DNA of 60,860 bases from a virus (taxonomy: Duplodnaviria; Caudoviricetes). A program made the translations under genes and the position numbers. The DNA lies in the IMG/VR virus record IMGVR_UViG_3300032320_000463, positions 1 through 60,860 of that record. One strand, 5' to 3'. Shown here one piece after another: positions 16,676-16,792 of this stretch. The notes under the pieces are model-generated. The model was not told where the DNA came from. It made no database searches and was given only the letters and a program-made list of their open reading frames with translations. Position 1 is the first letter of the stretch. Each line of letters opens with the position of its first letter.

Positions 16676-16792
16676 ATGAGTGGAATACTTTTAGCATTTG
16701 TTGGCGCCTCGTTTGGCGGCGGAGCTCCACCTGTTGTTGCTGAGGGTTCGTTTTCAGAAGCGCCAATGGCAGTCGTTGCCTTTGGTGGGTGA
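16676..16792 (+). CDS. 38-aa peptide, putative adhesin adaptor (absent from ORF track)
   Basis: MSGILLAFVGASFGGGAPPVVAEGSFSEAPMAVVAFGG; fills the gap between neighbouring genes almost exactly. Confidence 0.65.
   Translation: MSGILLAFVGASFGGGAPPVVAEGSFSEAPMAVVAFGG

Follow-up and report, generated by a model that had tools for sequence, protein, structure and literature searches.

A conserved 38-residue gene paired with a free fibre-tip domain in a tailed-phage genome: a candidate docking peptide without a receptor-binding head

Receptor-binding modules decide the host range of phages, and short docking peptides enable heads to be exchanged between them. In the branched systems of receptor-binding proteins (RBPs) known from K1-5/SP6, G7C and KP32/K11/KP34, a T4 gp10-like branching domain on the first RBP is described as receiving a docking peptide on the second (PMC6872550, PMC13352976). 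These conserved docking peptides are given as 7–29 amino acids long, and one second RBP, that of KpV767, is reported as cut to 69 amino acids with the peptide kept (PMC6872550); experimental validation of the interaction is reported for KP32, K11 and KP34 (PMC13352976). For gp37/gp38-type fibres, the N-terminal attachment domain of gp38 and the tip of gp37 are described as fitting like lock and key (PMC3157838). A docking peptide with its socket domain, swappable heads and truncated second RBPs are already known from these systems. Here, we describe a small open reading frame (ORF) at positions 16,676–16,792 of virus record IMGVR_UViG_3300032320_000463 (Duplodnaviria; Caudoviricetes), a complete record of 60,860 bp that we analyzed as a whole and refer to as the window. 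The ORF runs from ATG to TGA on the + strand and encodes 38 residues, as an initial annotation made from the letters alone had stated. It is a conserved gene, and we propose that its product is the small partner of a free-standing fibre-tip domain encoded 1 nt upstream. The two genes and their elements are the following.

16408..16674, + strand: mini-tip gene, a free-standing tip domain of 88 amino acids, the invariable upstream partner of the small gene
16665..16668, + strand: Shine-Dalgarno-like GGGG that precedes the ATG of the small gene by 7 nt and lies within the last codons of the upstream gene
16676..16792, + strand: small gene, ATG start, 38 codons plus TGA, based on the ORF list, coding conservation and family alignment
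16676..16714, + strand: residues 1–13 of the small gene product, putative MSGI-type plug
16715..16744, + strand: residues 14–23, Gly/Pro/Val linker
16745..16789, + strand: residues 24–38, second conserved motif, with FGG at its end

The size of the small ORF is uninformative by itself, because 17 kb of the window contain a chance background of 156 ORFs of at least 30 amino acids, and the evidence thus has to come from its relatives. A scan with an alignment of small ORFs returned 25 loci. In the window and 111 loci altogether, 32 instances of the small ORF represent 19 distinct DNA versions that encode 17 distinct peptides. The frame is open in 19/19 versions, which is true of this frame only, the next best one being open in 14/19. 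Over all pairs, the mean proportion of synonymous differences (pS) is 0.57 versus 0.15 for nonsynonymous differences (pN; Nei-Gojobori), a pN/pS ratio of ~0.26, and the invariant Gly, Ile and Ala positions are encoded by 3–4 synonymous codons. All length differences between the DNA versions are multiples of three and are located in the middle of the peptide, where the linker lies. The stop codon of the upstream 88-residue gene occupies positions 16,672–16,674, the ATG of the small ORF begins 1 nt later, and the ATG of the next gene (16,798) lies 5 nt past its end. A GGGG, GGAG or AGGGG sequence is kept at the same distance from the start in 19/19 versions, including those in which the upstream protein has a different C-terminus. 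We saw no promoter-like or terminator-like site within the small ORF, and the RNA fold of the region is ordinary (z-score −0.46); an RNA element, promoter or terminator in place of a gene was rejected on these grounds. The small ORF is a real, conserved phage gene under protein-level selection. The initial annotation had made its idea depend on conservation of the ORF, which is evident both in these 19 versions and in the 29 stand-alone relatives described below. ORFs of fewer than 40 codons in phage structural modules can thus be genuine, selected genes.

The peptides are hydrophobic, with a maximum 19-residue Kyte-Doolittle mean of 1.34–2.31. Lys and Arg are absent from 19/19 versions, acidic residues number 0–2, and almost all peptides end in F-[GA]-G or F-G. 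Metatranscriptome contigs from two lake libraries (X19 and X20) cover relatives of the mini-tip gene, the 140-residue gene upstream of it and the 109-residue gene downstream of the small gene, at a likeness of at least 80%. No X19 or X20 contig lies on 16,635–16,824, where such contigs cannot show absence and the RNA library may contain DNA. Among the public sequencing runs, X5 contains relatives at very high depth.

By sequence, the small ORF belongs to a diversified family of putative stand-alone mini-proteins. A family profile built from 21 peptides and searched against 1.84 billion representative proteins gave 34 matches at E ≤ 0.001, of which 29, each a cluster at 50% identity, are proteins of 31–39 amino acids aligned over their whole length. 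Long proteins make up the remaining five, which align only via repeated stretches of the linker part, and none of the 34 is a long protein with both ends of the peptide. The two-ended layout described in the initial annotation holds across the family alignment: an MSGI start with hydrophobic residues, a linker that varies in length, and a motif of the type DG[ST]FSGAP-h-A-x-x-[SA]FGG, which can also be written as [ST]F[SG]xxP ... F[GA]G at the C-terminus. The window peptide fits this definition, and the C-terminal half is the best conserved part of the family. The same annotation called the peptide unannotated, which is correct insofar as it has no name; the exact 38-residue protein is, however, already present in public gene calls, and close variants, one of them on 100 contigs, are recorded as 'hypothetical protein'. 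The peptide had no match in Pfam (E ≤ 0.1) or PHROGs, and neither it nor the 88-residue domain had a tblastn match in GenBank phage records. A long Gly-rich MSGI adhesin likewise had no tblastn match in GenBank phages, where a low-complexity filter may hide one. A blastn comparison of 15,989–18,112 with GenBank phages returned a single match of 139 nt, confined to the lysis region. No fused forms came up when longer proteins were searched with the 88-residue domain, which is weak evidence.

The first residues of the peptide connect it to a much larger set of genes. A scan with a tip-domain alignment returned 80 loci, with 0/80 matches located away from the C-terminus of the ORF, and the following gene was assessable in 79. 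The next ORF, at −3 to +10 nt, begins with M[STAP]G[IV] plus hydrophobic residues behind 68 of the 79 tip-domain genes, compared with 61 such starts among 3471 ORFs of at least 30 amino acids in the same loci, which bears out the initial annotation's statement that adhesins encoded behind such domains have MSGIxx starts. The figure of 68/79 is slightly conservative, since locus L174, classed as 'other', has an MTGI-type GTG ORF missed by the first-start-codon rule; the loci are not independent, several coming from the same or near-identical contigs. The 68 genes divide into 44 behind long fibres, encoding proteins of more than 45 amino acids, 22 behind mini-tips of ~89 residues, encoding peptides of at most 45 amino acids (22/22 mini-tips), and 2 behind very short fibres, encoding full adhesins. 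In the remaining 11 loci, the next gene is an RVK-type propeller gene (5) or 'other' (6). The long MSGI-type proteins span about 200–830 amino acids and have unrelated bodies, with heads that match PF05268 GP38 (L138, 262 amino acids, 5.6e-14), PF21722 Gly_rich_2 (L160, L133, L165) and fn3 (L172), as well as a weak Lcl_C match and WD40-like (propeller-like) repeats. An hhalign comparison aligned residues 1–10 of the peptide family with the N-termini of these long adhesins, and residues 1–10 only, the second motif not being common to them. An MSGI start on unrelated heads behind a tip domain is the apparent signature of a docking peptide for swappable heads, and the proposed plug-and-socket pair of tip domain and MSGI start is well supported by the neighborhood. 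The first ~10 residues of the small gene product would be the same plug that heads interchangeable adhesins behind fibre tips in lake phages related to this one, making the peptide a candidate 'headless adhesin', that is, a docking peptide without its receptor-binding head. The window genome contains two tip domains, four RVKxT domains and a single M[ST]G[IV] ORF of at least 30 amino acids, namely the small ORF, which leaves its peptide as the sole candidate plug for either of the two tips.

Freshwater-phage fibres that end in the tip domain (...GN[VI][ST], then stop) and are followed by an M[ST]GI gene occur in loci L112–L191, with L138:2761-3546, L160:2761-3681 and L172:2761-3795 as examples of the MSGI-type genes. 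A fibre-tip domain followed by a gene starting with MSGI and hydrophobic residues appears to be a widespread rule in uncultured freshwater phages, and the loci amount to a ready-made catalogue of swappable heads. We also considered whether the second motif corresponds to the 'YLVVAGGG' strand of the Gly_rich_2 adhesins; this was dropped, as only residues 1–10 aligned, and the shuffle control of the comparison was unstable from poly-Gly columns, with 7/100 shuffles reaching the score.

The 88-residue product of the upstream gene matches the tip domain in sequence, consistent with its initial description as a fibre-tip homologue. AF2 models it with high confidence (pLDDT 95.3) as an eight-stranded all-beta domain. 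The model is structurally most similar to a baseplate protein of Klebsiella phage KP1 (Z 9.5), the Pa223 capsid spike in its C-terminal domain (Z 9.3), an Acinetobacter phage tailspike at its C-terminus (Z 8.8), CpaA (Z 8.3), residues 91–179 of CBA120 TSP4 (Z 7.2) and StcE (Z 6.3). T4 gp9, CpaA and StcE are listed as relatives of the TSP4 domain XD1, and CpaA and StcE not as those of XD2/XD3; the function of XD1 is described as not understood (PMC8825819). The predicted fold of the mini-tip looks XD1-like rather than like that of the XD2/XD3 branching module. In a phylogenetic tree, mini-tips and fibre tips are split by one branch of length 1.75 with support 100/100. Divergence within the mini-tip group is deep, and the window's second tip domain, at the end of the fibre encoded from 9567, groups with the fibre tips. 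The pair of mini-tip and peptide would thus be old and no fresh duplication, because the mini-tip lineage is deep and distinct from the fibre tips.

The association of the two genes is strict. A mini-tip gene lies upstream of the small ORF in every locus with enough upstream sequence, and the small ORF is present in 7/7 loci fetched via the 88-residue protein versus 0/80 fetched via the downstream 109-residue protein. At the junction, the two genes are 1 nt apart, adjoin without a gap or overlap by ATGA, hence they stand in different relative frames in different relatives. These differing frames favor termination-reinitiation coupling over a recoding fusion, and they argue against a conserved frameshift or read-through fusion of mini-tip and peptide. 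The geometry of the junction and the co-occurrence with the mini-tip are directly supported, as are the reality of the gene and the homology of the plug with adhesin N-termini.

The reading we favor, and regard as somewhat probable, is that the peptide is an obligate small subunit of the free tip domain, made in step with it and docking by the family-wide plug, with the second motif acting as a clamp on that domain or as a contact to another partner. Translation of the peptide would be coupled to that of the mini-tip, on which it would dock, perhaps also on the 9567 fibre tip, which has no other MSGI-type partner in the genome. The product would be a small capped tip unit closing the cassette of propellers and glycosyltransferase/methyltransferase (GT-MTase). 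As the best conserved part, the second motif must presumably contact something, be it the same mini-tip, in a two-point clamp, or a second partner. We infer the binding of the peptide, its stoichiometry, its presence in the virion and its role. A 1:1 complex prediction of the 88-residue domain with the peptide, run without controls (score 0.00, mark 0.32), was counted neither for nor against binding. Several observations weigh against the subunit reading. The predicted mini-tip fold appears to match XD1-type domains rather than the XD2/XD3 docking modules, and the domain is modelled confidently alone (pLDDT 95.3), with no obvious need of a partner strand. Beyond MSGI, conservation of the plug falls short of that of the C-terminal motif, which a simple cap leaves unexplained, and the hydropathy of the peptide is high enough for a membrane segment. 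Many of the counted loci are close relatives, and the counts overstate independent events. If the pair binds as proposed, its 88 + 38 residues would form a minimal natural system for structural study of the docking code; should the second motif turn out to have a partner of its own, the peptide would represent a miniature adaptor of a new kind.

Compared with the branched RBP systems (K1-5/SP6, G7C and KP32/K11/KP34), the locus shares a short N-terminal peptide common to unrelated RBPs, as described for those phages (PMC6872550, PMC13352976), a peptide-bearing gene that adjoins the gene of the presumed socket, and swappable heads; a truncated, docking-only second RBP is also on record there in KpV767 (69 amino acids; PMC6872550). 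Unlike in those systems, the presumed socket is the C-terminal tip of the fibre and is predicted to be XD1-like rather than XD2/XD3. The peptide-only gene is no one-off truncation but a diversified family of 31–39 amino acids with a second motif, and it is invariably accompanied by a free copy of the presumed socket domain. The gp37 tip and gp38 adhesin of T2/T6/S16-type phages (PF05268), in which the adhesin gene lies directly behind the fibre gene, an N-terminal attachment part is joined to a variable specificity part, and tip and attachment types are described as co-varying (PMC3157838), offer a second parallel. The small gene is located 1 nt behind a tip-domain gene, and the 262-residue MSGI-type relative at L138 is the one that matches PF05268 (5.6e-14). 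In contrast to gp37, the tip domain in front of the small gene has no shaft and no sequence kinship to GenBank phages at the tblastn level. In contrast to gp38, the 38-residue protein has no specificity domain and no PF05268 match, and the common part amounts to ~10 residues instead of a folded attachment domain. Fibre chaperones (T4 gp38/gp57A, Mu Tfa and Pam3 gp25) are described as small proteins whose genes follow that of the fibre and which bind its distal part, some of them staying on the virion (PMC9608196). Those described there are folded beta-sandwich and helical domains of 80–160 amino acids, which the peptide resembles in neither sequence nor size, and the partner domain of the peptide is predicted to fold alone. 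Three features appear to be new: a tip domain of predicted XD1-like fold with an MSGI-type label, absent from GenBank phages at the tblastn level; a putative label-only gene that forms a conserved, diversified family with a second motif; and the constant pairing of this gene with a socket-only gene. A literature search, with supplements such as the peptide logos of PMC6872550 outside its scope, found no paper on the MSGI/tip-domain family.

The wider region of the window contains the following genes, which surround the mini-tip and the small gene.

8084..9103, + strand: repeat protein of 339 amino acids with the N-terminus MSFGFSTFAEVPFAAL, member of a conserved N-terminal motif family
9117..9557, + strand: stand-alone RVKxT domain protein, 146 amino acids (domain match E 3.7e-45)
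9567..10454, + strand: tail fibre, the last ~90 residues of which (10182–10451) are the genome's second tip domain
10457..14624, + strand: three propeller genes at the head of the cassette, whose products all start with an RVKxT domain and have NKF at the C-terminus
14646..15992, + strand: gene of 448 amino acids with methyltransferase-family matches and a faint glycosyltransferase match, based on Pfam matches near or below the cut-offs and on synteny
15989..16411, + strand: gene of 140 amino acids that overlaps the mini-tip start (ATGA), the most conserved of the trio formed with the mini-tip and the peptide
16798–17127: gene of 109 amino acids after the small ORF, opening a cluster that encodes two membrane proteins along with a phage lysozyme

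In all relatives, the gene order is one or more propeller genes, the 448-residue enzyme gene, the 140-residue gene, a tip-domain gene of ~89 residues and the small ORF; lineage L128 has the cassette without the 140-residue gene. The genes 3' of the small ORF vary: among them are lysis genes of several kinds, an Ig-like gene and, on a 162-kb contig, baseplate-like genes. Because these downstream genes vary while the upstream order holds, the small gene is the last member of the adhesin cassette and not the first of the lysis cluster. The start of the 140-residue gene overlaps the stop of the enzyme gene, and its own stop overlaps the start of the mini-tip gene, so the genes from the enzyme through the peptide look translationally chained. 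Identity among relatives is 63–98% for the 140-residue protein versus 26–90% for the mini-tip, and the peptide is likewise less conserved. The 140-residue protein has no Pfam match and matches only families of unknown function in PHROGs. Its AF2 model (pLDDT 80.9) had no match among PDB structures (Foldseek, E ≤ 0.001), and Atlas gave only an XkdW lead with a score of merely 0.84. No MSGI-type gene lies behind the 9567 fibre; the first propeller gene begins 3 nt past its stop.

The second motif of the peptide has a possible counterpart upstream of the fibre. The initial annotation had likened it to the N-terminus of the 8084 product, a likeness that is present but modest. When the alignment of 49 peptides was compared with the N-terminal motif (MFGISAFAEAPFASL type) of 45 members of the 8084 family, hhalign gave a score of 18.3 (P 2.7e-4) with a probability of only 42%, and 2/300 column shuffles reached that score, for a motif that is short and was chosen post hoc; a first peptide alignment had scored 15.9, reached by 2/200 column shuffles. 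Two single peptides, P0050 and P0048, come very close to the 8084-family motif, and we regard the resemblance as suggestive. The 8084-family motif itself (window 8084–8130 and 45 relatives, e.g., L203:1598 and L266:1082) is sharply conserved on bodies of 139–564 amino acids and is probably another docking label. Genes of this family usually lie just behind a 7575-like gene that ends in ...ALIRLATT. In the window, two paralogous genes of ~140–160 amino acids (6939–7361 and 7575–8051) with the ends ...ALIRL(V/ATT) are located just upstream of 8084; if their products are sockets for labels of this kind, also called MFG-type, the window genome would have two sockets and one MFG-type gene. The 9117 product shares its domain with the propellers, as initially noted, with 58–64% identity to the propeller N-termini over 100 residues. 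At L170:1462-4837, a 7575-like gene (128 amino acids) is followed by an RVKxT-only gene (157 amino acids), a very short fibre of 143 residues, most of which is tip domain, and a 687-residue MSGI adhesin. This order suggests that the RVKxT domain, encoded upstream of the fibre, is an anchor close to the tail. In five near-identical loci (L245:1364, L246:2049, L254:3002, L258:1182 and L262:3002), the order is reversed, with an RVKxT-only gene (166 amino acids), a gap of 1 nt and an MFG-type gene; this is the only arrangement that has the MFG label directly behind the RVKxT domain.

These resemblances allow two further roles for the C-terminal end of the peptide. A double plug, which we consider rather unlikely, would have the MSGI end fill the tip-domain socket while the FSGAP...FGG end mimics the MFG-type (8084-family) anchor and fills its socket, 7575/6939-like or RVKxT. 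In this way, the shaft-less tip would be attached to the virion and offer the propeller cassette an additional branch or docking point, and the peptide, if this is true, would be the smallest adaptor so far proposed in the receptor-binding apparatus of a phage. The initial annotation had instead cast the peptide as a two-ended adaptor, with its N-terminal plug in the tip domain and its C-terminal motif in the RVKxT domain, that mounts the propellers on the fibre. The two conserved ends and a linker that takes all insertions and deletions agree with such an adaptor, as does the alignment of the second motif with the 8084 family, P0050 and P0048 included, and 8084-like genes adjoin RVKxT genes in 39/45 loci, with the RVKxT gene downstream in 34 and the 8084-like gene 1 nt behind it in the five near-identical loci. 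However, 40 of the 45 loci had been fetched for holding an RVKxT domain, and among five genomes chosen without regard to it the adjacency occurs in the window only, so that of the two motif-domain pairs in the original idea the neighborhood statistics are strong for tip and MSGI but not for 8084 and RVKxT. In the usual order, the 8084-like motif stands at the far N-terminal end of a protein of about 140–560 amino acids and adjoins a 7575-like gene (which precedes it in 31/45, counted by eye), not an RVKxT gene. Moreover, 9/31 RVKxT genes, and also that of L170, have no 8084-like neighbor, and the motif match is short and post hoc. In the window and in 5/5 further genomes with the cassette, the long-fibre tip gene is immediately followed by the first RVK-type propeller gene; the gene-order logic behind the MSGI rule would then predict direct docking of the propeller on the fibre tip, with no encoded bridge required. 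The bridge is not supported by these arrangements, and we consider the adaptor distinctly unlikely.

Explanations in which the peptide has no place in the receptor-binding apparatus fare no better. The mini-tip lies 6–8 kb downstream of the long fibre tip in the window and in 5/5 other genomes, and the two tip domains bracket the cassette. This bracketing, together with the KpV767 second RBP of 69 amino acids and the 'temporal docking site' idea discussed with it (PMC6872550), agrees with a relic, in which the stub of a fibre and adhesin pair, truncated on insertion of the propeller cassette, serves as a landing pad or homology arm for new adhesins while the protein itself has no role. Such a relic is improbable given the protein-level selection (pN/pS ~0.26), the fixed length of 31–39 amino acids across 29 clusters at 50% identity, and the conservation of the stop position, the C-terminal motif and the Shine-Dalgarno-like site. 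The depth of the mini-tip lineage, apart from all fibre tips, and the lack of a long protein with the whole module among the profile matches also oppose it. We hold it very unlikely that the peptide is a small membrane peptide of the lysis module, such as a holin, an antiholin-like protein or a regulator. It is absent from 80/80 loci fetched via the 109-residue gene, travels with the mini-tip and is followed by non-lysis genes in some relatives, and without Lys or Arg in any of its 19 versions it has no basic residues as charged flanks; the same N-terminal motif also heads adhesins of 200–830 amino acids. What speaks for a lysis peptide is the location 5 nt upstream of the membrane-protein/lysozyme cluster, a hydropathy, borderline to sufficient, that permits one membrane span, and the unrelated hydrophobic ORFs of 31–33 amino acids found just upstream of the 109-residue gene in other lineages. 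The small ORF is like the small hydrophobic ORFs of phage lysis cassettes in size, hydrophobicity and position in the window, and unlike them in its link to a tip-domain gene and its lack of basic residues. Equally slim is the prospect that the peptide is a substrate or cofactor of the neighboring methyltransferase-family enzyme, for example modified or conjugated via its C-terminal Gly-Gly. The constant distance of two genes between it and the upstream enzyme gene in all cassettes examined, its conserved Ser/Thr residues and its C-terminal [GA]G would fit this role, against which stand the tight coupling to the tip domain rather than to the enzyme, an N-terminus common to virion adhesins, and the lack of a match to any known precursor family in Pfam or PHROGs. 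A subunit of the tip domain thus remains the reading we prefer.

Downstream of the small gene, the lysozyme of the lysis cluster matches PF00959 at 9.5e-36. Four loci from other lineages (L009:3907-4008, L015:3901-4008, L060:3907-4002 and L071:3907-4002) have an unrelated, strongly hydrophobic ORF of 31–35 amino acids (MKDWAV... type) that overlaps the start of the 109-residue gene, and ORFs of this type may be genuine small membrane peptides of the lysis module. A far larger version of the window cassette is present at L284 (record G002). There, a 1064-residue fibre (3305–6499) combines a coiled shaft, two sets of the same ~43-residue propeller blades and a C-terminal tip domain, and is followed by a second tip-bearing fibre and three large multi-propeller genes.

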